A stretch of 64,000 nt of DNA, from NCBI GenBank assembly GCA_036687665.1, contig JAYYZZ010000004.1:22330-86329 (forward strand), in the 5' to 3' direction. Position 1 is the stretch's first letter; the number at the start of each line of letters is the position of its first letter. Shown here piece after piece: positions 36,471 to 60,627 of this stretch. The notes under the pieces are model-generated. The model was not told the DNA's origin. It searched no databases and saw only the letters and a list, made by a program, of their open reading frames with translations. A program made the translations under genes and the position numbers. This DNA is from Pseudomonadota bacterium (GTDB lineage: Bacteria; Pseudomonadota; Gammaproteobacteria; Poriferisulfidales; JAYYZZ01).

Positions 36471-36485
36471 AGTAGACTAAGAAAA

Positions 36486-37910
36486 ATGAACATAGATAAA
36501 AAGAAAATAATCTTTAGCATGCTTACAGTTGTGATATTAGGTTTTACAGCAGGCGTGTTCTCAGAAATAATATATCGAGGCTACTTATCATATGAGATAT
36601 GGTCTAAGGCTGCATTTGGATATGGCGTAGATAAAGGCGAGTATCTAGTTGCTTTTGGATACCCTCCACACGTAATTTATGACAAAGAAGCAGGTTATCA
36701 CTACAATTCTGACCCTTACTATAGTATTAATCATCATGTTGATGAGAAATATACATGTTCTGTTTCTGATAATTTTGGCAAACATACGCTCCGCAAAGAT
36801 ATCTCAGACTATGAGTCTGCTGATTATAAAATACTATTGCTTGGCTCGTCTTATGCTGGCTACCGGTTTCCTGATGGATCAGGAACGCTAATTAACCACA
36901 CAACTAAAAGTCTAGAATACGAGTATCAAGGTACATTTGGCGGAATTAATTTGTCGCGCGGTTCAACAGGTATGCTGGAAATGGTAGATCTTGCAGTAAG
37001 CGTCATACCTAAAGAATTTCAACCTGATCTCGTGCTTTTTACTCTTAATACATCAGATGCGGCACGGCCAAGGTGGTGGCCAATTTACCGAGATGTCGGT
37101 GAAGGCATGTATCGCTGGTATCAAAGCAGAGAAGCAGAGCCTAAATCTTTTAAAAGAGATTCGGTAATTACTCAATCAGCTGTTTTGTCGGCAGAGATTG
37201 ATCAGGAGTGGTGCGACTATATAAACGATCTTTTTCAAACTAAAGGGATTGAGGAAGTACAAAAAGATCCTTTAGCGCAAAAAATTGTAAGGCATATAAG
37301 CGCTGCAAAAGCTATCCAAAGGCGCCCTCATTTTGATGTTAATCCTTTTACGGAACCTGTTTGTTTTATTTGTGACAAAATTAAACACGGCAGTGCATAT
37401 TATTCAATTAGTGTTTTTAATCAAAATAATCCTATCAGCCAAGTCAAGCCAGACAAATTTAAAAATGATCAGTTATTTATACAGAACTTTGCTAAGTTCA
37501 AAGAATTAGGTATCCCATATTTTATTATGCACTTCCCAAGCTATGCTGAGTTTAAATACAATATAAGAGCTGCGTATGGACATTATGGAATGAGCGCACA
37601 AGAAAATGAAGATATATATAACATTCTGCAAGAATTGACTGGAGCTGAAGTTGTCTGGTTAAAAGATTATATAAGTTTAGGAGAATTACAGCCCCACGAT
37701 TTTGTAAGTCACGAAAAAGATTGGCACCCACAACTTATGGGTTCAGAGCTACTAGCAAAAGCTATGCATGATGTAATTGCAGAGTATTTGGAAAAAAATA
37801 ATATTGCACAAAAGACAGGAAACAAATTTTCAGGTCGCTATACTCAATGCACGGAAACAAGTGTTACACCAACCCCAGGTAGGTCTGGTAAAGAAATTTC
37901 TTGCCCTTGA
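36486..37910 (+). CDS. membrane-anchored divergent SGNH-like protein
   Basis: 474 aa with N-terminal TM. Motifs ILLLGSSYAG and NLSRGSTG. C-terminal HEKDWHPQLMGSELLAKAMHDVI resembles block V plus a helix. Weaker match than the other five. Confidence 0.4.
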   Translation: MNIDKKKIIFSMLTVVILGFTAGVFSEIIYRGYLSYEIWSKAAFGYGVDKGEYLVAFGYPPHVIYDKEAGYHYNSDPYYSINHHVDEKYTCSVSDNFGKHTLRKDISDYESADYKILLLGSSYAGYRFPDGSGTLINHTTKSLEYEYQGTFGGINLSRGSTGMLEMVDLAVSVIPKEFQPDLVLFTLNTSDAARPRWWPIYRDVGEGMYRWYQSREAEPKSFKRDSVITQSAVLSAEIDQEWCDYINDLFQTKGIEEVQKDPLAQKIVRHISAAKAIQRRPHFDVNPFTEPVCFICDKIKHGSAYYSISVFNQNNPISQVKPDKFKNDQLFIQNFAKFKELGIPYFIMHFPSYAEFKYNIRAAYGHYGMSAQENEDIYNILQELTGAEVVWLKDYISLGELQPHDFVSHEKDWHPQLMGSELLAKAMHDVIAEYLEKNNIAQKTGNKFSGRYTQCTETSVTPTPGRSGKEISCP

Positions 37911-37929
37911 TCAGGCATAGTGCCTTGCA

Positions 37930-39057
37930 ATGGAAAACAAAAAACTCAAACTGAATGAATATGATGCCGCGGAAAGTAGCGCATTAGAAAGTATTCCCAA
38001 TAGAATTATTGAATGCACGCGAGCTGTTTCATTTTCCGATGCAGGGTATCCTACACGTGTTAGATCAAGTAGCGCTTTAGTTAGATACGTTGATGTTATG
38101 CACGAAGGACGTGCCTCAAGTACTTTCCATGAATTATTGCGCGGAATTACTAATGATGAGTTTAATCTTCTGAAAACAGTAACGCGCGCAATAAAAGATA
38201 ATTCTGAAAAACAATATAAAAAAAAGATGGTGGCAACAGGCAGTTTATTGCGTGCATTATTAATTGTTAGAACGCTAAAAGCATTGTACCCAGAAAAAAA
38301 GCGACTTGTTTTTGAGATTGGACATGGTTCTGGTTATGTAGGAGCATTGCTTCTAGCAGATGGATATGCATATGCTTCAACTGATATTGTGCAGGCTTTT
38401 TATGTTTATCAAAACAACTTGCTTGAAGAGCTAATTCCCGGGCAGGTAACTGATTTAGTTAACGGTGGAGAATTGACTAGCATAAATTCTATTAAGCCGG
38501 GGCATGCTGTGCACGTCCCTTGGTGGAAATTTTATTCTGTTACACCAAATATAAATATGTCAGTTGATGCGGTGACATGTAACCATGCGTTAGCAGAAAT
38601 GCACCCTAATAGCCTGCACTATATTCTCCATTTGGCAAAGATGATGCTGCAAAAAAAAGATGGCTCTTTTGTATTTGAGGGGTGGGGGGATGTAACTAAT
38701 GCGCCAATTTGGTCAGTTGCTAAAAAGTTTAGTGACTTAGGGTATGTAATTGCCCATAACAATATGACTGAAGCTGTTTATTTGCCAGAAGACAACAAAG
38801 CTGCACAAGGATGCATTAAGTTTGTTGAGGGAGAACTTGATGCTAACGTAAGTATGGAGGAGCAGTTTCACCCTCCTATACACATATCAAGTGATTCACC
38901 GTTATCTAAACGGATTACTAGCAATTTAGAGTCTATAAACGACAACCTGAGCGTTACTTACAAAGATGTTTGCGATATGTTTGCATCAGAACTCGGCAGC
39001 AAAGACTTACTAAGTGATGATGAAAAGTTTTTCAAACTAACTGACGGACCCTCATAA
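37930..39057 (+). CDS. putative class I SAM-dependent methyltransferase-like protein (paralog of 22022-23164)
   Basis: 375 aa. VFEIGHGSGYVGALLLADGYAYASTDI, plus shared blocks PNRIIE, SALVRYVDVMHEG, HVPWWKFY, TCNHALAEMHP and DDEKFF. Confidence 0.5.
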   Translation: MENKKLKLNEYDAAESSALESIPNRIIECTRAVSFSDAGYPTRVRSSSALVRYVDVMHEGRASSTFHELLRGITNDEFNLLKTVTRAIKDNSEKQYKKKMVATGSLLRALLIVRTLKALYPEKKRLVFEIGHGSGYVGALLLADGYAYASTDIVQAFYVYQNNLLEELIPGQVTDLVNGGELTSINSIKPGHAVHVPWWKFYSVTPNINMSVDAVTCNHALAEMHPNSLHYILHLAKMMLQKKDGSFVFEGWGDVTNAPIWSVAKKFSDLGYVIAHNNMTEAVYLPEDNKAAQGCIKFVEGELDANVSMEEQFHPPIHISSDSPLSKRITSNLESINDNLSVTYKDVCDMFASELGSKDLLSDDEKFFKLTDGPS

Positions 39058-39069
39058 CATCTCTGAAAT

Positions 39070-40323
39070 CTACAAAATGTCTTTTGCCATTCGTTTTGCT
39101 ATCAGTTTATTAGCCTCTGGGGTGTAGTGCACTACATCAAAATAAATAACACTATCTAAATTAGAGAATAGCGAAGTAATATCAAAGAAGCGGGTATTGT
39201 TAGACCTTATATATTTTTTTTCAAGATTCGCATATAAAATTTCATAACTCTTATATACAGATATTACTTTTTCTAAATATTTTTGTCTGTTGCGAAAAAT
39301 TTCTCCACCGTCACTCAAAACAACAAAACCATAAAATTCGTCAAGTAGTTCTTGTTCTTCTGCAGGCATATATTTTCTTTTGTACTCTGCAAATGGCTGT
39401 AAGTACGATATAAATTTGATGTTGTTATTGTTGCAATAGCTAGCTATCGCATCAATATTTTTCTCAAAAATAAAACTTTTTTGCGTATTTGATTTTATTA
39501 AATGTTCTGACTGCATTAACCAATGATGTTTTCTGTACGTATCTTGTCTTGTTATTAATTTTTTCTTCTGGATAAATCCAAAATGCTTAAGCAAGTAGTA
39601 CGAGTAGGTAAATATGTATGGAGGATTGTCATATTTAGTTTCTATATTGTTTATAAAATCAAAAAATTTATAATCCATATATCCCCAATTTATCATTTGC
39701 CCATTTATGTTATTTCTTTCTTTTTCGAATACATTGCTTACCGCATCATTCCAGCCATCTAGTGTGATTATAATGTCAGGTTTTAGATATATGATTTCAG
39801 CAAAGAATTTACGTAACCCATAAAATGACCAGCCTCCAGAAATACCAAAATTAAGCACTTCATATTCTTCGTTGCCAGAAGAATTATTTAGGGTTTTCTC
39901 AAGCTGTGCAGAGATGGTGTCTTGATTCCCAGATTCCAGACGGTTACCCGCCAGACTGCTACCACCGAGCATGAAGATTCTTGTCACACCCTTTTTCTTA
40001 TCGGGGAAAAATTCTGGAGCAGTTCCTTCCTTATCATTGCTTATAAACCCGAATTTATTGATAGTGAGGCTGCTTAATTTAGAATTTGGTTCAAGCCTCG
40101 TAGTAGTAAGCGGATCGTAAATACCAAAGGTCGTTCTTGAAGCATTTGCGGGGTGTAACTTTATCATTCCTTGAGAAGCACTCAAGAAATTCATTTGGTT
40201 TTTTGTTGCATGCTTATAAGTTAAATAAGAAAAGCAAAATACTTCCGCAAGTAAAAGTGTGAAAACTGCAATTAAAAAATATTGGTCAATTTTTGATAGA
40301 TATTTTCTTTGACCTATGTTCAT
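39070..40323 (-). CDS. membrane-anchored SGNH/GDSL-fold protein (GGS variant), paralog 4
   Basis: 417 aa with N-terminal TM. Blocks IFMLGGSSLAG, LNFGISGG, ITLDGWNDA and FDVVHYTPEANKLIAKRMAKDI. Confidence 0.65.
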   Translation of the reverse strand: MNIGQRKYLSKIDQYFLIAVFTLLLAEVFCFSYLTYKHATKNQMNFLSASQGMIKLHPANASRTTFGIYDPLTTTRLEPNSKLSSLTINKFGFISNDKEGTAPEFFPDKKKGVTRIFMLGGSSLAGNRLESGNQDTISAQLEKTLNNSSGNEEYEVLNFGISGGWSFYGLRKFFAEIIYLKPDIIITLDGWNDAVSNVFEKERNNINGQMINWGYMDYKFFDFINNIETKYDNPPYIFTYSYYLLKHFGFIQKKKLITRQDTYRKHHWLMQSEHLIKSNTQKSFIFEKNIDAIASYCNNNNIKFISYLQPFAEYKRKYMPAEEQELLDEFYGFVVLSDGGEIFRNRQKYLEKVISVYKSYEILYANLEKKYIRSNNTRFFDITSLFSNLDSVIYFDVVHYTPEANKLIAKRMAKDIL

Positions 40324-47565: not shown

Positions 47566-48165
47566 ATGACAGATCAAGGAAAGAGCTTTGTATCGACTTA
47601 TTTTTCACAGTCAGCTGCTATATGTGATCAAATCGATCATGAAAAAATAGATCAGCTTGCAAATTCGCTCAAGGAGCTCAGGGAAAGAGGTGGGCGCTTA
47701 TTTATATTAGGCGTCGGAGGTAGCGCAGGGAATGCAACACATGCAGTAAACGACTTCCGCAAACTTTGTGATATCGAGTCGTACGCCCCAACCGATAATG
47801 TTTCTGAATTGACAGCGCGTACAAATGATGAAGGCTGGGATACGGTTTTTGCAGCATGGTTAAGAACTAGCAAGGCATCTGAAAACGATGCGATTCTAGT
47901 TTTCTCTGTTGGCGGCGGCAACATCGAACACAATGTCAGCATGAACTTAGTAGAAGCACTCAAAGAAGGTAAGCAACGAGGCCTGAGTATATTCGGTGTA
48001 GTAGGGCGTGATGATGGTTACACAGCTAAAGTTGCAGATGTTGCGATTGTTATACCAACACTAGATCCTAATTTAATAACACCTCATACCGAAGCATTTC
48101 ATGCTGTAGTTTGGCACTGTCTTGTTTCTCATCCAGCGCTGCAAACACACAAAACAAAGTGGTAG
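47566..48165 (+). CDS. SIS-domain sugar-phosphate isomerase (GmhA / LmbN-like)
   Basis: 199 aa. Motifs RLFILGVGGSAGNATHAVNDFRK and VFSVGGGN. Confidence 0.8.
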   Translation: MTDQGKSFVSTYFSQSAAICDQIDHEKIDQLANSLKELRERGGRLFILGVGGSAGNATHAVNDFRKLCDIESYAPTDNVSELTARTNDEGWDTVFAAWLRTSKASENDAILVFSVGGGNIEHNVSMNLVEALKEGKQRGLSIFGVVGRDDGYTAKVADVAIVIPTLDPNLITPHTEAFHAVVWHCLVSHPALQTHKTKW

Positions 48166-48179
48166 ACTTATAACTAAAA

Positions 48180-48890
48180 ATGACTACTCTAAAAATAAAA
48201 ATCTTTGCAGACGGTGCAAACAAAGAAGACATACTGAGCTTGCACAAGAATGATCAAATAAAAGGTTTTACTACTAACCCAACATTGATGAAGCAAGCTG
48301 GTATAACAGATTACGAAAATTTTGCAAAAGATATACTGACGCATATTAAAGATAGACCAATATCGTTTGAAGTTTTTGCTGACGACTTTGACGAAATGAA
48401 AAAGCAAGCTGGCATTATAAACTCGTGGGCTGAGAATGTTTATGTCAAGATTCCCGTCACAAACACAAAATCTGAATCATCTTGCCCTTTAATAAAAGAA
48501 TTGAGTTCGCAAGGTATTAAGCTGAACGTCACGGCAATCATGACAGAAGATCAGGTGAGCGCTGTTTCAGATGCATTGGATGTTGCAACACCGGCAGTTG
48601 TATCTGTCTTTGCTGGCAGAATAGCTGATACAGGAGTCGACCCAATTCCTGTAATGTCAAATTGTCTGGAGATTTTAAAGGAGAGACCAAAGGCGGAATT
48701 GTTGTGGGCAAGTCCTAGAGAGTTACTGAATGTATTCCAAGCCGACCAGATCGGCTGTCACATTATAACAGCTACCCCTGACGTCTTAAAAAAACTCACA
48801 CTTGTTTCTAAAGATTTGACACAATATTCTCTTGAAACAGTGAAGATGTTTTTTGATGACGCATCAGCAGCCGGATACTCAATAAAATAG
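48180..48890 (+). CDS. transaldolase family protein, short Fsa/TalC type
   Basis: 236 aa. Motifs GFTTNPTL, Schiff-base Lys context VYVKIPVTN, NVTAIMT and VSVFAGRIAD. Confidence 0.85.
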   Translation: MTTLKIKIFADGANKEDILSLHKNDQIKGFTTNPTLMKQAGITDYENFAKDILTHIKDRPISFEVFADDFDEMKKQAGIINSWAENVYVKIPVTNTKSESSCPLIKELSSQGIKLNVTAIMTEDQVSAVSDALDVATPAVVSVFAGRIADTGVDPIPVMSNCLEILKERPKAELLWASPRELLNVFQADQIGCHIITATPDVLKKLTLVSKDLTQYSLETVKMFFDDASAAGYSIK

Positions 48891-48920
48891 ATATATTGGA
48901 AGACTATTCAGTTAAGGAAA

Positions 48921-49925
48921 ATGTTAAATAAGGTTCTCATCACAGGTGGGGCAGGTTACTGCGGCAGTTTGCTCACACCTCAGTTATTAAAGGCGGGTTA
49001 TCAAGTCACTGTCTACGACATTATGTATTTCAGTGACAATTTTCTCCCCAAGGATGATCCAAATCTTACTGTCGTGCACGGAGACATAAGAGATATAGAG
49101 AAGTTATCTGAGGCGTTACAGGGCATGGATGCAGTTATACATTTGGGCTGCATTTCAAATGACGCCAGCTTCGAATTAGACGAGCAACTAAGCACCTCGG
49201 TGAATTTAGATGCCTTTGAGCCATTAGTTGTGGCCGCGAAAGCGGCAGGGGTACAAAGGTTTGTGTATGCATCATCAAGCTCGGTTTACGGTGTTTCTGA
49301 TGAGCCAGATGTTACCGAAGATCATCCGCTTGTTCCTTTAACTTTATATAATAAGTTTAAAGGCCTTTGCGAACCGATATTACAAGACCATACGGATGAA
49401 AATTTTGTTGGTGTTATTTTTCGACCAGCAACTGTTTGTGGGTATGGCCCTCGTCAACGCTTGGATGTATCTGTAAATATCCTTACCAATCATGCTGTAA
49501 ATAATAATAAGATCACAGTATTTGGTGGCGAGCAATTGCGTCCTAATCTTCATATTCAGGATTATTGTGATCTTTGTCAGCTTTTACTTGAATCACCTAG
49601 TGAGAAAGTTTCTCGCGAGGTATTTAATTGTGGGTTTCAAAATATGAGTATTATGGATATTGCAAAGTTGGTGAAAAAAGTTGTTGAACAAGAATATCCT
49701 GAAAAAGATAATTTGGAGATTGTTACAACACCAACTGATGATATCAGGTCCTACCATATTAACTCTGATAAAATAAATAATGTATTAGGGTGGTCACCAA
49801 AACACTCTGTCGAAGATGCAATTAAAGATCTATGTTTTGCATTTCGTAAAGGTAAATTGCCTGACAGTCTTGATGATGATATATATTTTAACGTTCGACG
49901 CTTAAAAAGAATCAATGCCGCCTAA
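48921..49925 (+). CDS. NAD-dependent epimerase/dehydratase family (extended SDR)
   Basis: 334 aa. Motifs VLITGGAGYCGS, SSSSVYG and YNKFKGLCE. Confidence 0.85.
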   Translation: MLNKVLITGGAGYCGSLLTPQLLKAGYQVTVYDIMYFSDNFLPKDDPNLTVVHGDIRDIEKLSEALQGMDAVIHLGCISNDASFELDEQLSTSVNLDAFEPLVVAAKAAGVQRFVYASSSSVYGVSDEPDVTEDHPLVPLTLYNKFKGLCEPILQDHTDENFVGVIFRPATVCGYGPRQRLDVSVNILTNHAVNNNKITVFGGEQLRPNLHIQDYCDLCQLLLESPSEKVSREVFNCGFQNMSIMDIAKLVKKVVEQEYPEKDNLEIVTTPTDDIRSYHINSDKINNVLGWSPKHSVEDAIKDLCFAFRKGKLPDSLDDDIYFNVRRLKRINAA

Positions 49926-50916
49926 AAAAAATATCGCTGTAGTCACAGGAGGTGCAGGATTTATAGGTAGTCATATGGTTGATGTATTACTGGACAATGA
50001 TTACCAGGTAAGAGTGATAGATAATTTAGTAGGCGGACGTGAAGATAATCTCACTCACCACAGTAATAACAAAAATATATCTACAGAATGGGCGGACATA
50101 AGAAACTTATCACCTGAGTCCAATATTTTTAGTGATGCAAAATATGTTTTCCATTTTGCAGGTATAGGCGACATTGTTCCATCAATAGTTTCACCAGTCG
50201 AATATATGTCTACAAATATACAGGGCACTGTCAAAGTACTTGAGTGTGCAAGGCATGCTGGTGTAAGCAAATTTATTTATGCAGCATCTTCTTCTTGTTA
50301 TGGTATTGCTGATGTACCGACCACAGAAGATCATCCAATCTCCCCTTTATACCCATACGCTATGTCTAAATACCAGGGCGAGCAAGCCTGTTTTCATTGG
50401 CATAGTGTTTATAAATTGCCTGTGAACTCAATTCGTATTTTTAATGCATATGGGACTAGGGTTAGAACTACCGGGGTATACGGCGCAGTATTCGGTGTAT
50501 TCTTTAAACAAAAATTAGCAGGAAAGCCTTATACAGTTGTTGGAGATGGTTCTCAATCTAGAGATTTTATATATGCATCAGATGTAGCAAGAGCTTTTTT
50601 AGCTGCCGCTGAAGCAGAAAGACAAGGAGAAATTTATAATCTAGGTGCTGGCGATCCACAAACAATAAATTATTTAGTCGAATTGCTCGGCGGTGAAAAA
50701 ATTTATATTCCTAAGAGACCTGGCGAACCTGATTGTACTTGGGCAGATATATCAAAAATAAAAAAACAACTTCGTTGGGAACCCAATGTATCCTTTGATG
50801 ATGGTGTCCGTATGATGTTAGAAACAATCAATGCATGGGAGGACGCGCCTCTATGGGATCCAGAGTCTATACAAGAAGCGACCGTAGATTGGTTTAAATA
50901 TATGGGTGATAAGTAG
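49915..50916 (+). CDS. NAD-dependent epimerase/dehydratase family (extended SDR)
   Basis: 333 aa. Motifs VVTGGAGFIGSH, ASSSCYG and YAMSKYQGE. 11-nt overlap with the upstream SDR. Confidence 0.85.
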   Translation: MPPKKNIAVVTGGAGFIGSHMVDVLLDNDYQVRVIDNLVGGREDNLTHHSNNKNISTEWADIRNLSPESNIFSDAKYVFHFAGIGDIVPSIVSPVEYMSTNIQGTVKVLECARHAGVSKFIYAASSSCYGIADVPTTEDHPISPLYPYAMSKYQGEQACFHWHSVYKLPVNSIRIFNAYGTRVRTTGVYGAVFGVFFKQKLAGKPYTVVGDGSQSRDFIYASDVARAFLAAAEAERQGEIYNLGAGDPQTINYLVELLGGEKIYIPKRPGEPDCTWADISKIKKQLRWEPNVSFDDGVRMMLETINAWEDAPLWDPESIQEATVDWFKYMGDK

Positions 50917-50942
50917 TTCACCCAGCACTCTTATTGCATGAT

Positions 50943-50971
50943 TTGACCTAGCACTACTACACCATTAGACT
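50943..50971 (+). promoter_or_regulatory. candidate sigma70-type promoter (TTGACC - 17 nt - TAGACT)
   Basis: Read directly in the 88-nt gap upstream of the ATG at 51004. -35 TTGACC at 50943-50948, -10 TAGACT at 50966-50971, 17-nt spacer. Confidence 0.35.
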
Positions 50972-51003
50972 TCTTCTCTCTTCATAATATTTATAGCGCA
51001 CTG

Positions 51004-52560
51004 ATGAACAACAGCCTTAAAAAGCTCTCCGAGCAATATAAACATAAGTTAGTTGATGCAAGTCAGCTAAAGAAAAATATTGGCGAGCGACCAAGAGAGA
51101 AAAAAGTCATCATGTGTCACGGTGTCTTTGATGTCGTGCATCCCGGACACTTGCGACATCTTTTATATGCAAAAAGCAAAGCAGATATTTTAGTAGCGAG
51201 CTTGACAGCAGATACACACATAAAGAAGGGAATATATCGTCCGCATGTCCCAGAGGAAATGAGAGCTTTAAATTTAGCAGCATTTGAAATTGTTGATTAT
51301 GTGTTGATTGATCAAGAACCCACTCCCTTAAAAAATATTTCTAAGTTACAGCCAGATTTTTATGCTAAGGGTTATGAATATGTTGAAGAAGGAATGCCAG
51401 TAAAAACAGAAGAAGAAGCAGAAATTATTGAAAAATATGGAGGAAAAATAATTTTCACTCCAGGAGATATAGTTTATTCATCTTCGGCTTTGATTGAGCT
51501 CGAAACGCCTGCAATAAACATAGAAAAACTGCTTGCACTAATGGAACAAGAAAGCGTGAGTTTTAATGACCTCCGAGCAATACTGGAAAAGCTTGGTAAT
51601 TTCACCGTACATATTGTTGGAGATACAATCGTAGATAGCTATACGCAAACTGCAATGATAGGCGGACAAACAAAAACTCCAACAATGAGCGTTTTATATG
51701 AAGGAAAAAAAGATTATGTCGGGGGAGCAGGCATAGTTGCAAAACACCTTGTAGCAGCTGGTGCAAAAGTCGTTTTTTCTACAGTGCTTGGTAATGATAA
51801 TTTAAAGGATTTTGTTTTAAATGATTTAAAGGAAAACGAAATAGATTGCCATGCAATTATAGACCCAACAAGACCTACTACTAATAAAAATGCAATCGTG
51901 TCATCTGGTTATAGATTATTAAAGATTGATACATTAGATAATAACTCTATAGATGATAGTGTTTTGAAAGGGTTAACCGATAAAATAAAAAATACAAAAA
52001 GTGACGCAGTTATCTTTAGTGACTTTAGGCATGGAATTTTTAATCGTCGAACAATTGAGCCCCTAGTTGATTCAATTGATGCAAAGTGTTTTAAAGCTGC
52101 TGACAGTCAGGTTGCGAGCCGCTGGGGGAATATTACTGAGTTTAAAGACTTTGATTTAATCACTCCAAATGAAAGAGAGGCGAGGTTTGCTTTAGCTGAT
52201 CAGGATTCAGGGGTTAAACCATTGGCACAGGACTTATATGACGCTGCTGGTTGTAAACTTCTGATTATGAAATTAGGTGCACGCGGAGTATTGACGTGCC
52301 GAAGTAAGGAACACGGCCTTGATGATGTTTTTGTTGTAGATAGTTTTGTTGAGAATCTTATCGATGCTGTAGGTGCAGGCGATGCATTACTAGCATATTC
52401 AACACTTACGATGTTGGCCAGTGATTCAGCAGCTATATCAACTATTATAGGCTCAATCGCAGCTGCCTGTTTATGCGAGAAAGACGGGAATATACCAATT
52501 ACGCCTACACAAGTTTTAGATAAGATTGACAATATTGAAAAATATGCGAATTTCGGTTAA
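51004..52560 (+). CDS. bifunctional cytidylyltransferase-fold nucleotidyltransferase (N-terminal) / PfkB sugar-phosphate kinase (C-terminal); HldE-like with swapped domain order
   Basis: 518 aa. N-terminal CHGVFDVVHPGHLRHL (HxGH). C-terminal half VHIVGDTIVDSY...GGAGIVAKHL...DAVGAGDALLA (RfaE domain I / PfkB signature). Confidence 0.8.
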   Translation: MNNSLKKLSEQYKHKLVDASQLKKNIGERPREKKVIMCHGVFDVVHPGHLRHLLYAKSKADILVASLTADTHIKKGIYRPHVPEEMRALNLAAFEIVDYVLIDQEPTPLKNISKLQPDFYAKGYEYVEEGMPVKTEEEAEIIEKYGGKIIFTPGDIVYSSSALIELETPAINIEKLLALMEQESVSFNDLRAILEKLGNFTVHIVGDTIVDSYTQTAMIGGQTKTPTMSVLYEGKKDYVGGAGIVAKHLVAAGAKVVFSTVLGNDNLKDFVLNDLKENEIDCHAIIDPTRPTTNKNAIVSSGYRLLKIDTLDNNSIDDSVLKGLTDKIKNTKSDAVIFSDFRHGIFNRRTIEPLVDSIDAKCFKAADSQVASRWGNITEFKDFDLITPNEREARFALADQDSGVKPLAQDLYDAAGCKLLIMKLGARGVLTCRSKEHGLDDVFVVDSFVENLIDAVGAGDALLAYSTLTMLASDSAAISTIIGSIAAACLCEKDGNIPITPTQVLDKIDNIEKYANFG

Positions 52561-52569
52561 GCGATAATT

Positions 52570-53496
52570 ATGCGAATACTGATTGTAGGTTTAGGTGTGC
52601 AAGGCTATAAAAGAAGAGACTTTGCTAACGCTGATTATGTTGCGTCAGTCGACCCAGTGAATAAAGAGGCTGATTACAAGAACATCCAAGATGTATCTTT
52701 AGATGATTTTGATGGAGCATTATGTTGTGTCCCAGATGCACCAAAAGCCCAATTAGCTAGATATCTTTTAAGCCATGGTAAACACATGCTTATAGAGAAA
52801 CCTTTGTGGACAGAAAGCGACAAAGACTTAAAGGAACTGCAAAGCATGGCAAACCAGAATAACGCTGTGTGTTATACCGCATATAACCACAGGTTTGAGC
52901 CCCACTTTATAACTATGCGTGATTTAATAAAATCAGGTGAGCTTGGAAAGATTTATTCATGCCGTATGTTTTATGGCAACGGAACTGCTTCGTTAGTAAA
53001 AGAGTCACGCTGGCGAGACAAAGGGGCAGGAGTTTTGCCTGACCTGGGTTCTCATTTACTTGACACAGCAAACTTTTGGTTTGATATAGACCGAGAGGAC
53101 TTCCTTTTACATTCTTGCAATAATTTTGAAAACGAAAGCCCAGATCATGTAATTATTGCCTCAGAATCAACACTACCAAGATTAGAATTTGAGATGACTT
53201 TGCTTTCTTGGAGAAATCATTTTACATGTGATGTATACGCCGAAAAAGGCAGTGCTCATATAAGTTCTCTTTGTAAGTGGGGGCCGTCAACATTTGTTCA
53301 TAGAAAACGTGTTTATCCTAGCGGCGTACCAGAGGAAGATGTGGTTACTTTGGAGCAGGCTGACCCGACTTGGGAGGCAGAATATATTCATTTTAAGAAA
53401 TTATGTAAAACAAAGACAAATACTGATTTAACAAATGATATTTGGATAAATCGCACTATTAGAAATTTGAGTGATATTGCAGTAGGAAAAAAATAG
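52570..53496 (+). CDS. Gfo/Idh/MocA family oxidoreductase
   Basis: 308 aa. Motifs MRILIVGLGVQG and HMLIEKPL. Confidence 0.8.
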   Translation: MRILIVGLGVQGYKRRDFANADYVASVDPVNKEADYKNIQDVSLDDFDGALCCVPDAPKAQLARYLLSHGKHMLIEKPLWTESDKDLKELQSMANQNNAVCYTAYNHRFEPHFITMRDLIKSGELGKIYSCRMFYGNGTASLVKESRWRDKGAGVLPDLGSHLLDTANFWFDIDREDFLLHSCNNFENESPDHVIIASESTLPRLEFEMTLLSWRNHFTCDVYAEKGSAHISSLCKWGPSTFVHRKRVYPSGVPEEDVVTLEQADPTWEAEYIHFKKLCKTKTNTDLTNDIWINRTIRNLSDIAVGKK

Positions 53497-54780
53497 ATGA
53501 GTTCATTAACAGTCGGCTATGCAGGAATGACCCATCTCGGTATTGTGTCAGGGTCAGTTACAGCACTGAAAGGGTTTCAGACAATTTGTTTTGATGACAA
53601 TGCTGAGCTTATAGCAGACATTAAAAATGGGAAATTACCTATAGCGGAGCCAAAAATTCAAGAGACAATTGCTTCGAATGGCACTTCTCAAGTTTTTACA
53701 CACGATCCCTCAGATTTGAAATCATGTGACATAATTTTTATATCTCCGGATGTCCCAACGGACGACCAAGGTAACAGTAGTTTAGATAATGTTCTCTCTT
53801 TGGTTAATATTGTAATATCACATATAAAAAAAGATGCAATTTTAGTTATCTTGTGCCAAGTCCCGCCCGGTTTCACACGTCAAATATCATTTAAGAAAGC
53901 ACAGCTTTATTATCAGGTTGAAACATTGGTTTTTGGCGATGCGATAGAACGTGCAACATCCCCAGAAAGAATAATAATTGGCTGCGATCAACCAGGCTCA
54001 GATCTTCCGCAAAGCTACAACAGTTTTCTTGAATGTTTTAAATGTCCAATATTAAAAATGAAATATGAGAGCGCAGAACTTTCTAAAATTTCTATTAATT
54101 TATGTTTGGTGTCGAGCATAACTGTAACTAATGCCTTGTCAGAAATTTGTGAAAAGGTTGGCGCTGACTGGGGTGAGATTATGCCAGCACTACAATTGGA
54201 TAAACGTATTGGAAAGTTTTCTTATCTGTCTCCTGGGTTAGGTTTATCTGGCGGGAATTTAGAGAGAGATCTAGTTACGGTTATAAAACTAGCAAAAGAA
54301 CATCAAACAAATGTAGATGTTATCAAGTCGTTTATTGATGATAGCGATTATCGAAAACAGTGGGCTTCTAAGATCGTAAAAAATTTAACTTCTAATACCA
54401 GCTCAAAACCTTCGATATGTATTTGGGGTCTTGCTTATAAAAAAAACACACACTCAATTAAAAATTCAGCCTCAATTGCAACGATAAAAGCACTTCAAGA
54501 GTACTTCTTTAAGGTGTATGACCCTGTTGTAAAATCTTTAGACCAGGATTTTCAAAATATCGTTTTTAGTGAAACTGCACTCGAAGCTCTAGATAAAGCT
54601 GATATTCTAATGGTCCTGACTCCATGGGATGAGTTTGCAAGTTTTGATACCGAGGAAATTTGTGAAAGAATGAATGGTGCTATCATAATTGACCCATATA
54701 AGATGCTAAATCATAATAGTGAATCGTCGTTGGATATTGACTACTACACTATTGGCGCCCATAAAGATAAAAAAGAATAA
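53497..54780 (+). CDS. UDP-glucose/GDP-mannose dehydrogenase family protein, apparently lacking the catalytic Cys
   Basis: 427 aa. N-terminal VGYAGMTHLG...NGKLPIAEP. Where the family has GfGGsC.pKD this protein reads GLGLSGGNLERD (Asn at the Cys position by eye). Its ATG directly abuts the upstream TAG stop. Confidence 0.7.
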   Translation: MSSLTVGYAGMTHLGIVSGSVTALKGFQTICFDDNAELIADIKNGKLPIAEPKIQETIASNGTSQVFTHDPSDLKSCDIIFISPDVPTDDQGNSSLDNVLSLVNIVISHIKKDAILVILCQVPPGFTRQISFKKAQLYYQVETLVFGDAIERATSPERIIIGCDQPGSDLPQSYNSFLECFKCPILKMKYESAELSKISINLCLVSSITVTNALSEICEKVGADWGEIMPALQLDKRIGKFSYLSPGLGLSGGNLERDLVTVIKLAKEHQTNVDVIKSFIDDSDYRKQWASKIVKNLTSNTSSKPSICIWGLAYKKNTHSIKNSASIATIKALQEYFFKVYDPVVKSLDQDFQNIVFSETALEALDKADILMVLTPWDEFASFDTEEICERMNGAIIIDPYKMLNHNSESSLDIDYYTIGAHKDKKE

Positions 54781-54784
54781 AATC

Positions 54785-55681
54785 ATGTTGCAACATTTAA
54801 ATGCTACACAAACAAAACCAAAAAGAGTTGTCATCATCGGCGCAAGTGGATTTGTAGGACAGTCAATACAAGAAAGATTGCAGGCGTCAGATGTAGAAGT
54901 GTTGCCCGTATCTAGTTCTGATATCAATCTTCTTGAGCCAAACAGTGACAAGCAGCTGTCAAAACTATTGCAACAAAAAGATTCTATTGTTACCGCCTCA
55001 GCTATTGCTCCTTGCAAAGACTTGTCAATGTTAAAAGACAATATCATTTTAATGGAAAATTTATTTTCAGCAGTGCAGTTAGCAAATGTTAGTCATATTC
55101 TAAATATAAGCTCAGACGCTATCTACACAGATAGCACTGAACCATTAACAGAAGACTCTGCAACATCTCCTAACTCAATACATGGGATCATGCACCTTAC
55201 TCGCGAAAGAGTGTTGCAGGATATGTTTACTGATATCCCTTGCGCAACAATAAGACCAACATTGATATATGGGGTGAAAGATCCACACAATGGTTATGGG
55301 CCAAACCAATTCAGAAGATTAGCTGCTTCAAAAAAGCCTATTATTCTGTTTGGCAAGGGCGAAGAAAGGAGAGATCATGTTTTAATAGATGATGTTGCTG
55401 AATTAGCATATAGAATTTTAATGTATAAAAGCATAGGTTCACTGAACGCGGCAACAGGTAAGGTTGTATCATTTTATGATGTCGCAGAGTTAGTAACGGG
55501 ATGTTTTGATTATTCTGTTGCCATTCAAACCTCGCCAAGGAATGGACCAATGCCACACAACGGTTACCGCCCATTTAGCGCAGAGCAAACACAACACGCA
55601 TTTTCAGATTTCACATATACACATATAGAAGACGGAATTAAAAAAGTACATACTGAAATGATGGAGAACATAGATGGCTGA
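54785..55681 (+). CDS. atypical SDR / NAD(P)-binding Rossmann protein
   Basis: Start moved to the ATG at 54785. Has VVIIGASGFVGQ, but the expected YxxxK position reads HGIMH (by eye). Confidence 0.65.
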   Translation: MLQHLNATQTKPKRVVIIGASGFVGQSIQERLQASDVEVLPVSSSDINLLEPNSDKQLSKLLQQKDSIVTASAIAPCKDLSMLKDNIILMENLFSAVQLANVSHILNISSDAIYTDSTEPLTEDSATSPNSIHGIMHLTRERVLQDMFTDIPCATIRPTLIYGVKDPHNGYGPNQFRRLAASKKPIILFGKGEERRDHVLIDDVAELAYRILMYKSIGSLNAATGKVVSFYDVAELVTGCFDYSVAIQTSPRNGPMPHNGYRPFSAEQTQHAFSDFTYTHIEDGIKKVHTEMMENIDG

Positions 55682-56333
55682 AGTAGATTTACTAAGAGCT
55701 TTACCGAAAACTAAAAGAAATATTGAAATGCGTTCTGATGCAAAAGACCCTGAGGTAATAAGGATTTCTAAGGAATATGGTGAACTTTATTTTGATGGCC
55801 CTCGCGATTATGGTTATGGAGGTTACAAGTATGATGGGCGCTGGATTCCTGTTGCGAAAGATATTGTTGAGCATTTTAGTTTAAAACCGGGCATGCGGGT
55901 TTTAGATGTTGGCTGCGCAAAAGGCTTTTTAGTAAAAGACTTAATGATTGCTTGCCCAGGGCTAGAGGTATTTGGTATTGATGTGTCCGAATATGCGCTT
56001 ATGAATTGTGAAAGCGAAGCTGTGGGACGACTTCAGATTGGAAGTGCAGATAGATTGCCATTTCCTGATGAAAGTTTTGATTGCGTACTTTCACTCAACA
56101 CTATTCATAATTTACCAAGAGAGCGTTTGATTGTTGCTCTGAAAGAGATACAGAGATTGTCAGGAGGTAAAGCATTTGTGCAGGTTGATTCTTATAGGAC
56201 ACCTGAAGAAAAAGAAATTTTTGAAAGCTGGGTGTTAACAGCAGAATTTCATGATTATCCAGATGAGTGGATTACAGTTTTCAATGAAGCCGGTTATACT
56301 GGTGATTATTTCTGGACAATAATTAATAGCTAA
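55674..56333 (+). CDS. class I SAM-dependent methyltransferase
   Basis: 219 aa. Motif I VLDVGCAKGFLVKDL and FDCVLSLNTIHNL. 8-nt overlap with the upstream gene. Confidence 0.8.
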   Translation: MAEVDLLRALPKTKRNIEMRSDAKDPEVIRISKEYGELYFDGPRDYGYGGYKYDGRWIPVAKDIVEHFSLKPGMRVLDVGCAKGFLVKDLMIACPGLEVFGIDVSEYALMNCESEAVGRLQIGSADRLPFPDESFDCVLSLNTIHNLPRERLIVALKEIQRLSGGKAFVQVDSYRTPEEKEIFESWVLTAEFHDYPDEWITVFNEAGYTGDYFWTIINS

Positions 56334-56365
56334 TTACATTATAATAACAAGAAGAGAGAACCTGA

Positions 56366-57193
56366 ATGAGCGCTAAAAATAATAATAGCTTTGATTTTAA
56401 AGCAGCAAGACAGCGCTGCATGAAATTCAGACGCCGCATACTTGATATTTCGCAAACTGTTGTTGCTCTGCATATTGCTCCTGCTTTCTCATGCTTGGAG
56501 GTTGTAGATTTAATCTACCATGGTCTTATGCGTGAAAATTCTTCTGCTCACAAAGATGCTTTTTTAATGTCCAAAGGCCACGGATGTATGGCACAGTATG
56601 TTGTACTAGAAGAGCTTGGCGTGCTAAGCAATGATGATCTTGGTAAATATTGCACACCCGAGGGAATTTTAGGTGCACATCCTGATTATGAGACACCAGG
56701 GATAGAAGCAGCAACAGGTTCTTTAGGTCATGGTCTTTCCATGGCAGTTGGTATGTCTTATGCAGAAAAAATCAAAGGGACAGACAGCACCATCTATACA
56801 GTATTAAGTGATGGTGAAGTGCAAGAAGGCTCAACTTGGGAAGCTGTTCTTATGGCATCCACTTTTAATACCACAAATCTTATTGCATTTGTAGATTATA
56901 ACGATTTTCAAAGTTTGGGCAGGACAAGTGAAACTCACCCAACTTTTTACCCATTAACGGATAAATTTGTAGCATTTGGTTGGGAGTCTGTTGAAGTGAA
57001 TGGACACAACGCCGAGGAAGTTTATGCAGCAGTTCAGCAAAGAAAAGGAGACAAACCTTTAATGATTGTCTGTAAAACAATAAAAGGACGAGGGGTAAGT
57101 TATATGGAAAGTGTTCCGATATGGCACTATCGTGCGCCGAATGCAGAAGAGTATGAGCAGGCTATTAATGAATTAAAAGAGATATCATCATGA
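56366..57193 (+). CDS. transketolase, N-terminal (ThDP pyrophosphate-binding) subunit
   Basis: 275 aa. Motifs GHGLSMAVGM and LSDGEVQEGSTWEA. Confidence 0.88.
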   Translation: MSAKNNNSFDFKAARQRCMKFRRRILDISQTVVALHIAPAFSCLEVVDLIYHGLMRENSSAHKDAFLMSKGHGCMAQYVVLEELGVLSNDDLGKYCTPEGILGAHPDYETPGIEAATGSLGHGLSMAVGMSYAEKIKGTDSTIYTVLSDGEVQEGSTWEAVLMASTFNTTNLIAFVDYNDFQSLGRTSETHPTFYPLTDKFVAFGWESVEVNGHNAEEVYAAVQQRKGDKPLMIVCKTIKGRGVSYMESVPIWHYRAPNAEEYEQAINELKEISS

Positions 57194-58104
57194 GAAATAA
57201 GTTTGCTGATACCCTTTATAAGTGCGCTGTTGAGGATTCGGACATAGCAATTGTTGTCGCAGATATTTCTCCGGCAGGTAGTATGGAAAATTTTAGACAA
57301 GAGTTCCCGCATCGTTTTTTAAATGTAGGTGTTGCAGAGCAGTCTATGATTGGAATCTGCGCAGGAATGTCTTTAAGAGGGTTGCAACCTTTTGCTTACA
57401 CTATTGCAACCTTTACATTGTATCGTCCTTTTGAATTTGTGCGTGACGATCTGTGCTACCAAAACTTACCTGTTACGATTGTCGGCGTAGGCGGCGGTGT
57501 AGTTTATTCAACTCTTGGAGGAACGCATCATTGCCAGGAAGATGTTGCGATAGCTAGCGCAATCCCTAATATGTCTGTAATAGCTCCTTGTGATCCAGAA
57601 GAAGCCGAGGCTGCAACTAAATACTGTGCTGTTCAAAAAAATGGTCCCATTTATTTGCGTTTAGGTAAAGCTGGAGAGCCTACTCTTACAGCCAACGCTG
57701 ATACTCCGTGGGAATTTGGAAAGATACGTTATCTTCAGAAGGGTAACGATGTTTGTATTTTGAGTTACGGTATCATTATGAAAAAATCTCTTGAAGTTGC
57801 ACAAACACTTGAAAAACTTGGCAAGTCAGTTTCTCTAGTTTCAGTCCATACCGTGAAGCCTTTAGATATACCAGGCATAGAGACTGCACTGTCAGCACAT
57901 TCAGAAGTTGTTGTTATCGAAGAACATGCACCATCTGGAGGTTTGAGTCACAGAGTGAAAGAAGTTGCGTGGAATATGCAAGCTTCTTGCAAGCTGCATA
58001 CTTTTACCTTGCAAGACCGTTTTTTACATAATTACGGGGATCATGATGATTTATTAGCAGCGCACGGGCTTTCTGTGGATAAGATAGTTGCTGGAATAAA
58101 ATAA
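57190..58104 (+). CDS. transketolase, C-terminal (pyrimidine-binding) subunit
   Basis: 304 aa. Motif FLNVGVAEQSMIGICAGMS. ATGA overlap with the N-terminal subunit. Confidence 0.88.
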   Translation: MRNKFADTLYKCAVEDSDIAIVVADISPAGSMENFRQEFPHRFLNVGVAEQSMIGICAGMSLRGLQPFAYTIATFTLYRPFEFVRDDLCYQNLPVTIVGVGGGVVYSTLGGTHHCQEDVAIASAIPNMSVIAPCDPEEAEAATKYCAVQKNGPIYLRLGKAGEPTLTANADTPWEFGKIRYLQKGNDVCILSYGIIMKKSLEVAQTLEKLGKSVSLVSVHTVKPLDIPGIETALSAHSEVVVIEEHAPSGGLSHRVKEVAWNMQASCKLHTFTLQDRFLHNYGDHDDLLAAHGLSVDKIVAGIK

Positions 58105-58105: not shown

Positions 58106-59326
58106 CTACTTCATTAACTTCATAATTTCATCAGAAATATGTTGGCTCAGAGGGAACGAGCACGTGAATGCGGGAGAAACAGCGTTTAGTAAATGAAAAG
58201 ATTTATCATCCCCTTCGTATACAAAATCCATTTCTAAACTATTATCATTTGTGTTTAACAGTTGCGCACGTATCGCAGGTCTTCCCCATTTTAAAAAATC
58301 TGAACTATTAACATCATTTACCATTTTTGAAGCCAGCTGTATGAGGTACTCTTTTGAGTATTTCTTCATTTCTTCTAACGCAAGACCACGAAATTGATTC
58401 TTATTTGCCAAAAACATCTCACTTTGTGCCTTTATAATGTTCATAAATTCTTTAGCACTAAAGTTTTCTACGCCCTTGTAGTGCTCTTTCCAAAATGCTG
58501 GAATAGCAGTCGGGCCAATTTTCGCGCTCCCTTCTAATGTGACTGTAAAATGCACACCAAGAAAAGGTTGATCGATATTTGGCACAGGATAAATGTTGGT
58601 TTTTAACCAACCAGGTTTTTTCTTAAGGTAAAGATATAGACCCTTAAAAGGCATGATCATGTAGTTTTTAGAGAAACCGTAATCTTTTGCAATTGTGTCT
58701 GCATGCAATCCTGCACAATTTACAAGGTAGCCGTATTCAACTGAACCTTTCGAAGTATTAATTTTATTTTTACTTCTTCCAACGTATTTTGTTTCTAGCA
58801 TCAAAGAAATATCAGCATCTAATATGTCTTTTTTTAGTGATTTCATGACGGAGACAGGATTGACTGTGGATGTGTTGGGGGAATACAACGCTCTTGAAAA
58901 TGTTTTTACTTTTGGTTCTATTTTTTTTGCCTCATCTTTAGAAATTATCTCTACGCTTACCCTATTTCTTTTTGCTCTTTCTTCCAAAGTGTCAAGAACA
59001 AGTTCTTCTTCTTCGTTTTGTGTAACAACAAGTTTGCCACATTTGTTGATACCAATATTCTTTTCTTCACAATATTTACGCAAGGCTTCGTTTCCGTCAC
59101 GCGTGAATTGGGCTTTTAGTGAATCTTTTGTATAGTAAAATCCTGCGTGCAGAACTCCGCTATTTAAACCACTGGCATGCTGATAAATATCATTTTCTTT
59201 TTCAATAATGAGAATTTTTGCTGTGGGTATTTTTCTTTTCAATGCATGGGCGATACTTATACCCATTACTCCAGCACCAATAATTACAAAATCAGTATAC
59301 TTAGGCGGTTGGTCCAATTGTGGCAT
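58106..59326 (-). CDS. lhgO: L-2-hydroxyglutarate oxidase/dehydrogenase family FAD oxidoreductase
   Basis: 406 aa, collinear by eye with E. coli LhgO: DFVIIGAGVMG, NSGVLHAGFYYTKDSLKAQF, PFKGLY, PFLGVHFT, GPTAIPAF and IRAQLL. Confidence 0.8.
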   Translation of the reverse strand: MPQLDQPPKYTDFVIIGAGVMGISIAHALKRKIPTAKILIIEKENDIYQHASGLNSGVLHAGFYYTKDSLKAQFTRDGNEALRKYCEEKNIGINKCGKLVVTQNEEEELVLDTLEERAKRNRVSVEIISKDEAKKIEPKVKTFSRALYSPNTSTVNPVSVMKSLKKDILDADISLMLETKYVGRSKNKINTSKGSVEYGYLVNCAGLHADTIAKDYGFSKNYMIMPFKGLYLYLKKKPGWLKTNIYPVPNIDQPFLGVHFTVTLEGSAKIGPTAIPAFWKEHYKGVENFSAKEFMNIIKAQSEMFLANKNQFRGLALEEMKKYSKEYLIQLASKMVNDVNSSDFLKWGRPAIRAQLLNTNDNSLEMDFVYEGDDKSFHLLNAVSPAFTCSFPLSQHISDEIMKLMK

Positions 59327-59334: not shown

Positions 59335-60627
59335 TTAGAGACGTATAAGCTCTATTTCTTCTGGTTTATCTTTTCTTGGCAATTTCGACATGACATCAAA
59401 TACAATGCCGTTTTTATTGTTCACAAGCATTTTCATAGCTTCCCATCCTCCGTCTATATATTCTTGATGCGCTACAGCAAGCAGGACTAAATCTGACGGA
59501 GCTAAGGCATCATAGACAGTCATATCCATTTTATATAACTTCTTTACCTCATTTGTGTCAGCTAGTGAGTCATGTATTTGAATATTGCACTTTTTTTGAT
59601 CTAAGAATCGATACACATCTAATACTTTGCTGTTTCTGAGGTCCGGCACATTTTGTTTAAAAGTAAGCCCAAGTATTATAATTTGGCTGTCTTTTGCAGC
59701 TTTCCCTTTGTTTTCCAGATGGTCGATGATCTGCTGACCAACAAGGTCTCCCATTTCGTCATTAATACTTCTGCCCGACAGAATGACTTTGGGATTGTGT
59801 CCTATTTTGTTTGCCTTATACGTTAAGTAATAAGGGTCTACTCCAATACAGTGCCCGCCTACTAAACCTGGTTTGAAATTAGAAAAATTCCATTTTGTTG
59901 CTGCTGCCTCAATTACATCAGTAGTATCTAAACCCATTTTTTTACAAATTATTGAAAGCTCATTCATTAGCGCAATATTCAGATCTCTTTGTGTGTTTTC
60001 AATTACTTTTGCTGTTTCTGCGATCCTTATACTGCTAACCATATGAGTGCCAACAGGTATAATAGATTGGTATAAGTGATCGACATATTTAGCAGCCTGA
60101 TCATTAGAGCCGGAAGTGACTTTTACTATATTAATTATTCTATGGTTTTTGTCTCCAGGGTTTATTCTCTCAGGACTATAACCAACTAAAAAATCTTCAT
60201 TTATTGTAAGGTTTGAAGAAGCTTCTAGTATTGGTATGCATATTTCTTCAGTCGCACCCGGGTACACAGTCGATTCATAAATGACAAGATCCCCTTTTTT
60301 TATGATGCTTCCTACTGTTTTGCTGGCAGATTTGACTAAACTTAAATCTGGATGTTTATTTTCATCTATTGGTGTTGGAACGGTTATTATATAGATATCC
60401 GAATCGCGAATGTCTTCAGCATTGTTAGAAAAAATTAGCTTTTTTGCAGATTTAATATCAGAAGAGCCAACTTCATTTGTGCTATCCTGATTCAACTTTA
60501 AATTATTTATACGCTGCTCATTAATATCATAACCAATCGTTTTTGTCCTTTTTCCAAATTCTACAGCGAGTGGTAGCCCAACATAACCGAGGCCGATAAT
60601 TGATATTTTTTTTTCTGTTATTTCCAC
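59335..60627 (-). CDS. nucleotide-sugar 6-dehydrogenase, TviB/WbpO/CapL-like
   Basis: 430 aa. Motif ISIIGLGYVGLPLAVEFGK. Catalytic Cys retained in GLVGGHCIGVDPYYL. Confidence 0.88.
   Translation of the reverse strand: MEITEKKISIIGLGYVGLPLAVEFGKRTKTIGYDINEQRINNLKLNQDSTNEVGSSDIKSAKKLIFSNNAEDIRDSDIYIITVPTPIDENKHPDLSLVKSASKTVGSIIKKGDLVIYESTVYPGATEEICIPILEASSNLTINEDFLVGYSPERINPGDKNHRIINIVKVTSGSNDQAAKYVDHLYQSIIPVGTHMVSSIRIAETAKVIENTQRDLNIALMNELSIICKKMGLDTTDVIEAAATKWNFSNFKPGLVGGHCIGVDPYYLTYKANKIGHNPKVILSGRSINDEMGDLVGQQIIDHLENKGKAAKDSQIIILGLTFKQNVPDLRNSKVLDVYRFLDQKKCNIQIHDSLADTNEVKKLYKMDMTVYDALAPSDLVLLAVAHQEYIDGGWEAMKMLVNNKNGIVFDVMSKLPRKDKPEEIELIRL

Follow-up and report, generated by a model that had tools for sequence, protein, structure and literature searches.

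In UDP-glucose dehydrogenases (UGDHs), Lys, Asn and Asp residues serve the first step, from alcohol to carbonyl, and the thiol of a catalytic Cys then forms a thiohemiacetal and a thioester, the latter being hydrolysed by Glu-activated water. The Thr of the STVP motif and the second Glu of the PEFLxEG motif also have catalytic roles in the canonical enzymes, and Cys-to-Ala mutants can still convert alcohol to aldehyde and back, yet make no acid. In the O-antigen pathway of WbpA and WbpB (WlbA), a UDP-GlcNAc 6-dehydrogenase of this kind is followed by a Gfo/Idh/MocA-type UDP-GlcNAcA 3-dehydrogenase acting on the same nucleotide sugar, a route which requires an acid-forming, Cys-containing dehydrogenase. 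The present analysis concerns a 64,000-nucleotide stretch of the Pseudomonadota bacterium assembly GCA_036687665.1 (contig JAYYZZ010000004.1, positions 22,330 to 86,329; hereafter the window, to which all positions refer), which encodes a UGDH-family protein without this Cys (UGDH-N, P0001) directly downstream of a Gfo/Idh/MocA oxidoreductase (GFO, P0002). The arrangement differs from that of WbpA/WbpB in that the Cys-containing UGDH-family gene of the window, which is TviB-like, adjoins a TviC-like epimerase gene and not GFO.

A pairing closer to that of the window is found in the biosynthesis of lincomycin and celesticetin in Streptomyces, where LmbL (CcbL) and LmbZ (CcbZ) act on an octose and a 6,8-dehydration is reportedly assigned to LmbL/CcbZ in a 2020 PNAS paper. 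As given in an excerpt of PMC4351081, the lmb/ccb gene table lists LmbL as 'C8 dehydrogenase' and LmbZ as 'C8 oxidoreductase', together with the transaldolase LmbR, the isomerase LmbN, the kinase LmbP, the phosphatase LmbK, the nucleotidyltransferase LmbO and the epimerase LmbM. The operon order is lmbL-M-N-Z-P-O in an extract of PMC7014725, and a passage of PMC12945683 has LmbM, LmbL, CcbZ and CcbS turning GDP-octose into GDP-lincosamide.

Like the Lmb operon, the window places UGDH-family and Gfo/Idh/MocA-type genes in one sugar operon, and both encode a transaldolase, a SIS isomerase, a kinase, a nucleotidyltransferase and epimerase-type short-chain dehydrogenases/reductases (SDRs), the comparison being one of gene content, not of sequence. 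The kinase and nucleotidyltransferase, which are separate proteins in the Lmb system (LmbP and LmbO), are joined in the window in a single HldE-like fusion. The window cassette also differs in having no aminotransferase, in adding a methyltransferase, an atypical SDR and a split transketolase, and in belonging to a Gram-negative surface-glycan locus rather than an antibiotic cluster. By gene content, LmbL/LmbZ is the closest known system, and the likeness to this pair drawn in the original prediction for this DNA holds as a parallel with the lincosamide octose pathway at that level.

A second relevant system is the bradyrhizose locus of photosynthetic Bradyrhizobium, in which, according to portions of PMC4743980, disruption of gdh abolishes the bradyrhizose O-antigen and gdh lies in an 11-gene operon proposed for bradyrhizose synthesis. 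This sugar is described in an excerpt of PMC9912281 as a 'ten-carbon bicyclic monosaccharide'.

Replacement of the catalytic cysteine in UGDH-N

The original prediction held, from an alignment by eye, that the catalytic Cys of UGDH-N is replaced by Asn, and that the other family member of the window keeps it. HMMER alignments to solved UGDHs bear out the first of these claims, with the segment GLGLSGGNLERD aligning gap-free on GCGYGGSCFPKD in 3gg2 and 2y0e (phmmer) and Asn254 falling on the catalytic Cys; in the phmmer alignment to 4a7p there is a 2-residue gap, with N still on C. The E-values of UGDH-N against canonical UGDHs lie between 8e-42 and 1e-30. The TviB-like protein, which provides an internal control, reads GLVGGHCIGVD at this place, and its Cys falls in the Asn254 column.

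In the same alignments, further changes were found around the active site, including Gln121 in place of the STVP Thr (within K-S-T-V-P), Phe146 in place of the second Glu of P-E-F-L-x-E-G, G-M-T-H-L-G (G10-M-T12-H13-L-G15; GxTHxG) in place of G-x-G-Y-x-G, and E-R-D in place of P-K-D. The canonical residues matched in UGDH-N are Lys197, Asn201, Glu142 and Asp258, the first, second and last of which give it the same Lys/Asn/Asp core as the canonical enzymes.

Membership of the family is clear from its domains, UGDH-N carrying UDPG_MGDP_dh_N, the central domain and the C domain (Pfam PF03721, PF00984 and PF03720) at 73.2, 66.6 and 81.8 bits against cut-offs of 27, 25.4 and 30, and scoring 220.8 bits (cut-off 189.8) with the NCBIfam subfamily model TIGR03026. 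Every NCBIfam equivalog model scores it far under its cut-off, and the UDP-glucose 6-dehydrogenase equivalogs TuaD (NF047673, 177.4 bits against 700), AglM (NF041297, 149.4 against 670) and PRK15057 (48.4 against 757) are not reached. The structure model proposed as a check in the original prediction was made with AlphaFold2 (AF2) and has a predicted local distance difference test score (pLDDT) of 87.9. This predicted fold is confidently UGDH-like, with a template modelling (TM) score of 0.88 to human UGDH and the three-domain fold of the canonical enzymes (4a7p, 3gg2, BceC 2y0c and human UGDH 2q3e; TM 0.82-0.89). UGDH-N is a UGDH-family member by structure, yet fails the family's defining catalytic feature.

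A word-indexed search returned 6888 relatives, and the 120 best listed, which are 47-98% identical to UGDH-N, were examined. The motif [AS]GGNLERD is present in all 121 sequences formed by UGDH-N and these 120. An exhaustive search of 1.84 billion cluster representatives gave 12359 hits at E<=1e-3 and 1070 at E<=1e-30, and UGDH-N was aligned with MAFFT to the best 150, each representing a cluster at 50% identity; these are 34-54% identical to it, with E-values as low as 5e-72. In the resulting 151 sequences the Cys column holds N in 134, H in 14, and Q, D and V in one each, and never Cys. K197 and N201 are each kept in 149 and D258 in 150, E142 likewise varies little or not at all, and the replacements particular to this group are R257 (151), Q121 (147), H13 (136) and F146 (127). 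The D33 that lies where the second strand ends is invariant, and in 129 of the 151 sequences Ser or Thr takes the place of the second Gly in GxGxxG. Another 119 sequences, found as relatives of a divergent member with high guanine-cytosine content (P0210), have N (118) or H (1) in the Cys column, so that across the three sets (121, 151 and 119) Cys occupies the catalytic place in none of 391 relatives. The P0210 relatives are named as Omnitrophica, Planctomycetota, Acidobacteriota and Alphaproteobacteria, and the search with the P0210 protein gave no actinobacterial or Lmb-named match.

Judged from these sequences, the replacement of Cys is a family-wide trait, and neither a chance lesion nor decay. 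As conservation at the replaced positions is no lower than at those retained, the pattern speaks for a re-tooled active site, and UGDH-N is putatively an active, re-tooled member of the UGDH fold. The Cys-less branch is delimited here by homology searches and alignments and comprises at least 150 clusters at 50% identity. No description of a Cys-less UGDH branch was found in the literature searched, which left most subscription journals outside its coverage. Automatic sources name relatives of UGDH-N as UDP-glucose 6-dehydrogenase, a label which is almost certainly wrong for this branch because the catalytic Cys is missing. ESM Atlas clusters of the relatives bear generic 'nucleotide sugar dehydrogenase' names and nothing more specific, and the cluster names of 10 His-type or fused members are uninformative on function.

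The Gfo/Idh/MocA partner and the sugar cassette

Both open reading frames (ORFs) of the pair, their abutting stop and start codons and the Gfo/Idh/MocA identity of the upstream neighbour were confirmed as originally described. GFO has an N-terminal Rossmann domain and a C-terminal alpha/beta domain, and its E76-K77-P78 (EKP), D158 and H162 (a D-x3-H catalytic pair) are invariant in 26 orthologues. Its AF2 model (pLDDT 90.3) has a TM of 0.81-0.84 to the nearest structures, and the closest folds are sugar(-ring) secondary-alcohol dehydrogenases, including glucuronide 3-dehydrogenase, scyllo-inositol dehydrogenase, GenD2, KanD2, DgpA and levoglucosan dehydrogenase.

When one genome was scanned for each species, at least 532 stretches (species genomes) encoded a UGDH-N relative, and the best 80 of 532 loci were kept, representing Alpha-, Beta- and Gammaproteobacteria, Nitrospirota, Acidobacteriota, Gemmatimonadota and Thermodesulfobacteriota. 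Labrys okinawensis DSM 18385, Methylocystis silviterrae, Azospirillum sp. TSO22-1 and Polynucleobacter sp. IMCC 30228 are examples of carriers in culture. A tblastn search with the window proteins found a GFO homologue in 75 of these 80 loci. Four of the five misses are loci which end within about 500 bases upstream, and in the fifth (L024) the gene is present, split over three frames (frameshifted), so that GFO accompanies UGDH-N in 76 of the 76 loci retaining upstream DNA. The distance from GFO stop to UGDH-like start was measurable in 73 loci, with a 4-nt overlap in 53, a 1-nt overlap in two, abutting codons in one, a gap of 1-30 nt in seven and of 31-100 nt in four. A spacing of about 890 nt in another four is due to an atypical SDR gene lying between the two, and two odd values (-16 and -1299) are probably start-codon artefacts of the script. 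The cluster-representative search also yielded a natural fusion of the two proteins, the metagenomic P0188 (719 aa), of which the first 297 residues are 43% identical to GFO (E 7e-76) and the remainder is a Cys-less UGDH domain. With this co-occurrence in 76 of 76 loci, the 4-nt overlap in 53 of 73 and one natural fusion, the Gfo/Idh/MocA neighbour is the obligate genomic partner of UGDH-N. The suggestion that the two proteins act together is upheld as far as this genomic partnership goes, and the chemistry of a joint action is predicted below.

Other fusions were also observed. The metagenomic P0193 (722 aa) joins a classical adh_short SDR to a Cys-less UGDH-like domain, and P0273 (794 aa, metagenomic) joins a Cys-less UGDH-like domain, 47% identical to UGDH-N, to a PF00149 metallophosphoesterase-domain protein. 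A search for longer fused forms (749-2135 aa) gave four proteins, none of them fused to GFO.

The pair is embedded in a run of plus-strand genes at 47566-58104 (Table 1), the order of which recurs in related loci, with most neighbours at 56-80% identity in the tblastn comparison of the best 80. Many of the misses of cassette genes among these loci are explained by contig ends.

Table 1. Features of the window discussed here; fractions are occurrences among the 80 best related loci.
Feature	Position	Strand	Basis and occurrence
UGDH-N (P0001), Cys-less UGDH-family protein, 427 aa	53497..54780	+	Pfam, NCBIfam, AF2
Asn254 codon AAT, place of the catalytic Cys	54256..54258	+	HMMER alignments to solved UGDHs
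GFO (P0002), Gfo/Idh/MocA oxidoreductase partner, 308 aa	52570..53496	+	Pfam GFO_IDH_MocA N and C domains
Abutting stop/start of GFO and UGDH-N, ...AAA TAG ATG AGT...	53494..53499	+	TAG 53494-53496, ATG 53497
SIS-domain (GmhA-like) sugar-phosphate isomerase, first cassette gene	47566..48165	+	Pfam/NCBIfam; 55/80
Small transaldolase	48180..48890	+	TIGR02134, 356 bits (cut-off 282); 62/80
Two extended SDR epimerase/dehydratase genes, SDR1 (48921-49925) and SDR2 (49915-50916)	48921..50916	+	68/80 and 71/80
Nucleotidyltransferase-kinase fusion, HldE-like, domain order swapped	51004..52560	+	CTP_transf_like residues 38-130, PfkB 236-502; rfaE_dom_I and rfaE_dom_II matches; 72/80
SDR3 (P0398), atypical extended SDR, third of the conserved trio	54785..55681	+	ATG start at 54785; Pfam Epimerase; 76/80
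Class I S-adenosylmethionine (SAM) methyltransferase	55674..56333	+	Pfam; 71/80, 50-80% identity
Split transketolase, N part (56366-57193) and C part (57190-58104); accessory	56366..58104	+	38/80 and 36/80
TviB-like canonical family member, Cys kept, internal control	59335..60627	-	NF011729, 471 bits

SDR3 keeps GxxGxxG, and its expected YxxxK place reads HGIMH by eye. It accompanies the pair in 76 of the 80 loci, and in four its gene separates those of GFO and UGDH-N, which suggests that the conserved unit may be a trio of altered nucleotide-binding-fold proteins comprising GFO, UGDH-N and SDR3.

Relatives of the cassette include a HAD phosphatase gene (190 aa) between the SIS and transaldolase genes (L002:3312-5322) and often a fourth SDR, and in one locus examined (L002) a DegT aminotransferase gene lies downstream. 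In the window the SIS and transaldolase genes are 14 bases apart with no HAD phosphatase gene in the cassette, and the only HAD hit in the assembly, 29% identical, is on another contig. No TAL_FSA-family gene other than that of the cassette transaldolase was found in the 918-kb, 86%-complete assembly, which has 4 contigs, and this enzyme may double as the cell's own housekeeping transaldolase. A full-length transketolase (690 aa) is encoded on another contig of the same assembly.

Primers from the bradyrhizose study (PMC4743980) located the gdh operon in 16 of 401 genomes of the genus (that of locus L032), of which loci L094-L096 were examined. These primers have no match in the 80 related loci or the window at up to 5 mismatches, and the peptides which they encode give only weak partial matches there. 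The gdh operon encodes an HldE-like fusion, an NTP_transferase, an SDR, a SIS protein, gdh, a split transketolase, a Zn-dependent alcohol dehydrogenase (Zn-ADH), an APH-type kinase and a methyltransferase. The HldE-like fusion, SDR, SIS protein, split transketolase and methyltransferase are shared with the window cassette, at 30-46% identity to window proteins or to the fourth SDR of a relative. Unlike the cassette, the gdh operon has no UGDH-like, GFO or transaldolase genes, and carries the NTP_transferase, Zn-ADH and APH kinase genes instead. The idea that the window cassette is the published bradyrhizose operon was rejected, as the true gdh locus is a cousin cassette without the pair. This Bradyrhizobium cousin nevertheless connects the cassette type with higher-carbon O-antigen sugars. 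As a speculation, a heptose (C7), two carbons from transketolase and a methyl group would add up to the ten carbons of bradyrhizose.

The cassette lies inside a glycan locus of about 48 kb, which includes glycosyltransferase, ABC-2 transporter and carbamoyltransferase genes and is flanked by housekeeping genes and by queA and tgt. In the middle of this locus, 13 ORFs of 307-485 aa (22022-23164, 24361-35256 and 36486-40323) have no Pfam match at E<=1e-5, and these ORFs (window 22022-40323) adjoin genes for carbamoyltransferase, SxtJ-like, fatty-acid hydroxylase-family and GDSL lipase-like proteins. Between the cassette and the TviB/TviC-like genes lies an FAD oxidoreductase gene on the minus strand (58106-59326), which scores 325 bits with an L-2-hydroxyglutarate oxidase model (cut-off 299) and has homologues of 33-40% identity near the cassette in four of the 80 loci.

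Homologues at E<=1e-40 were found in 0 of 40 sampled genomes of the same order, indicating that the cassette is patchily distributed. The stretch itself was found in marine and seawater metagenomes, in rows from 10 studies. In one metatranscriptome run a single short contig of the operon was recovered (52676-52933), where DNA may be present in such libraries, and in a second run three short contigs (48842-48997, 53015-53178 and 57007-57158), with possible DNA carry-over, so that transcription is not established.

Predicted chemistry and its alternatives

The function somewhat favoured for UGDH-N is that of a two-electron side-chain dehydrogenase which works with GFO on an NDP-heptose or NDP-octose (NDP, nucleoside diphosphate) and does not form an acid. 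The upstream cassette genes would supply the nucleotide-activated heptose or octose; the SIS isomerase, transaldolase and HldE-like fusion, together with the HAD phosphatase of relatives, share their logic with ADP-heptose synthesis and the Lmb octose pathway, and an unusual surface sugar of seven or eight carbons is the probable product of the operon. UGDH-N would then perform one NAD-dependent two-electron oxidation on the exocyclic side chain, the residues for hydride transfer being retained. A single such oxidation is the simplest inference from an active site in which the Lys/Asn/Asp set is kept and the Cys, Thr and second Glu are replaced. In a heptose or octose, the UGDH fold brings a secondary alcohol carbon up to NAD; the expected product is therefore a ketone, for which no thiol would be needed, most likely the one derived from the C6 secondary alcohol. 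UGDH-N is envisaged to act as an obligate pair, probably a complex, with GFO, and also with the atypical SDR3 encoded downstream. GFO and probably SDR3 would complete a redox-neutral conversion, for which the best guess, by analogy with LmbL and LmbZ/CcbZ, is a deoxygenation. Instead of a uronic acid, the pathway would thus deliver a higher-carbon sugar in keto or deoxy form to a glycan of the O-antigen type. A true Lmb-like dehydration is a best guess by the same analogy and takes up roughly half of the confidence placed in the two-electron side-chain function.

Several points weigh against this proposal. The altered GxGxxG fingerprint, with Thr or Ser as its second Gly, leaves NAD binding less than assured. 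The analogy with LmbL/LmbZ is one of family names and gene context, and the cassette of the window has neither a gene for an LmbS-like aminotransferase nor the HAD phosphatase gene of relatives. In addition, the only transaldolase found in the genome might serve housekeeping, which would make a heptose as likely a substrate as an octose.

Among the alternatives, an epimerisation by oxidation and reduction, in which UGDH-N makes a side-chain ketone and GFO reduces it from the other face, inverting the stereocentre with no deoxygenation, is possible but unlikely. It would draw on two intact-looking NAD-type oxidoreductases which are tightly coupled and once fused, and a redox-neutral pair suits an operon without an obvious external redox partner. 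However, the cassette already has two HldD/GalE-like SDR epimerase candidates, where one SDR is normally enough, and a fixed third partner with altered catalytic residues (SDR3, by eye) suggests additional chemistry.

Rather doubtful is the generation of a terminal aldehyde, in which the Cys-less enzyme frees the aldehyde of an NDP-sugar as an acceptor for the transaldolase (C3), the split transketolase (C2) or both, and a sugar of 9 to 12 carbons is assembled while attached to the nucleotide. Transaldolases and transketolases need aldehyde acceptors, both are encoded in the cassette, and a cousin cassette with HldE-like, SIS, SDR, split transketolase and methyltransferase genes surrounds the bradyrhizose gdh. 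That cousin, however, has neither the UGDH-like gene nor those for GFO and a transaldolase, only 38 of the 80 loci contain the transketolase while the pair is constant, and in the LmbR precedent the transaldolase works ahead of the isomerase, on sugar phosphates. More broadly, there is a slim chance that a stop at the aldehyde or ketone lets the C-C bond-forming enzymes of the cassette extend or branch the nucleotide-activated sugar; if so, the cassette and its Bradyrhizobium cousin would represent long-sought routes to 9- to 12-carbon O-antigen sugars of the bradyrhizose and caryophyllose type.

A non-catalytic role, with a redox-dead UGDH-N which binds the nucleotide sugar or acts as a scaffold for GFO, is improbable. 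The loss of the Cys, the catalytic Thr and the second Gly of GxGxxG would agree with such a role, as would the obligate partnership and the one fusion, but the replaced positions H13, Q121, F146, N254 and R257 are themselves strictly conserved, K197, N201 and D258 are kept in 149-151 of the 151 aligned sequences, and D33 is invariant. Continued uronic acid formation, by a second oxidation on the hydrated aldehyde (gem-diol) without a thiol, as in histidinol dehydrogenase, is very improbable, as the presence of all three domains, a TIGR03026 score that passes the cut-off and the conserved Glu142 (the water activator in canonical enzymes) are set against the absence of Cys from all 391 relatives when the TviB-like paralogue of the window keeps it, the concerted loss of the Thr and second Glu, scores far under the UDP-glucose 6-dehydrogenase equivalog cut-offs (177 against 700 and 149 against 670) and the failure of Cys-less UGDH mutants to form acid.

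Implications for the family

The UGDH-N branch is a large, uncharacterised group, firmly tied to a second oxidoreductase and to a cassette resembling those for seven- or eight-carbon sugars. Its reaction, once worked out, would correct thousands of annotations and add a new type to a textbook enzyme fold. The system would provide a Gram-negative counterpart to the lincosamide octose steps, and the reaction would identify a widespread, unknown component of bacterial surface glycans, including those of abundant marine plankton.

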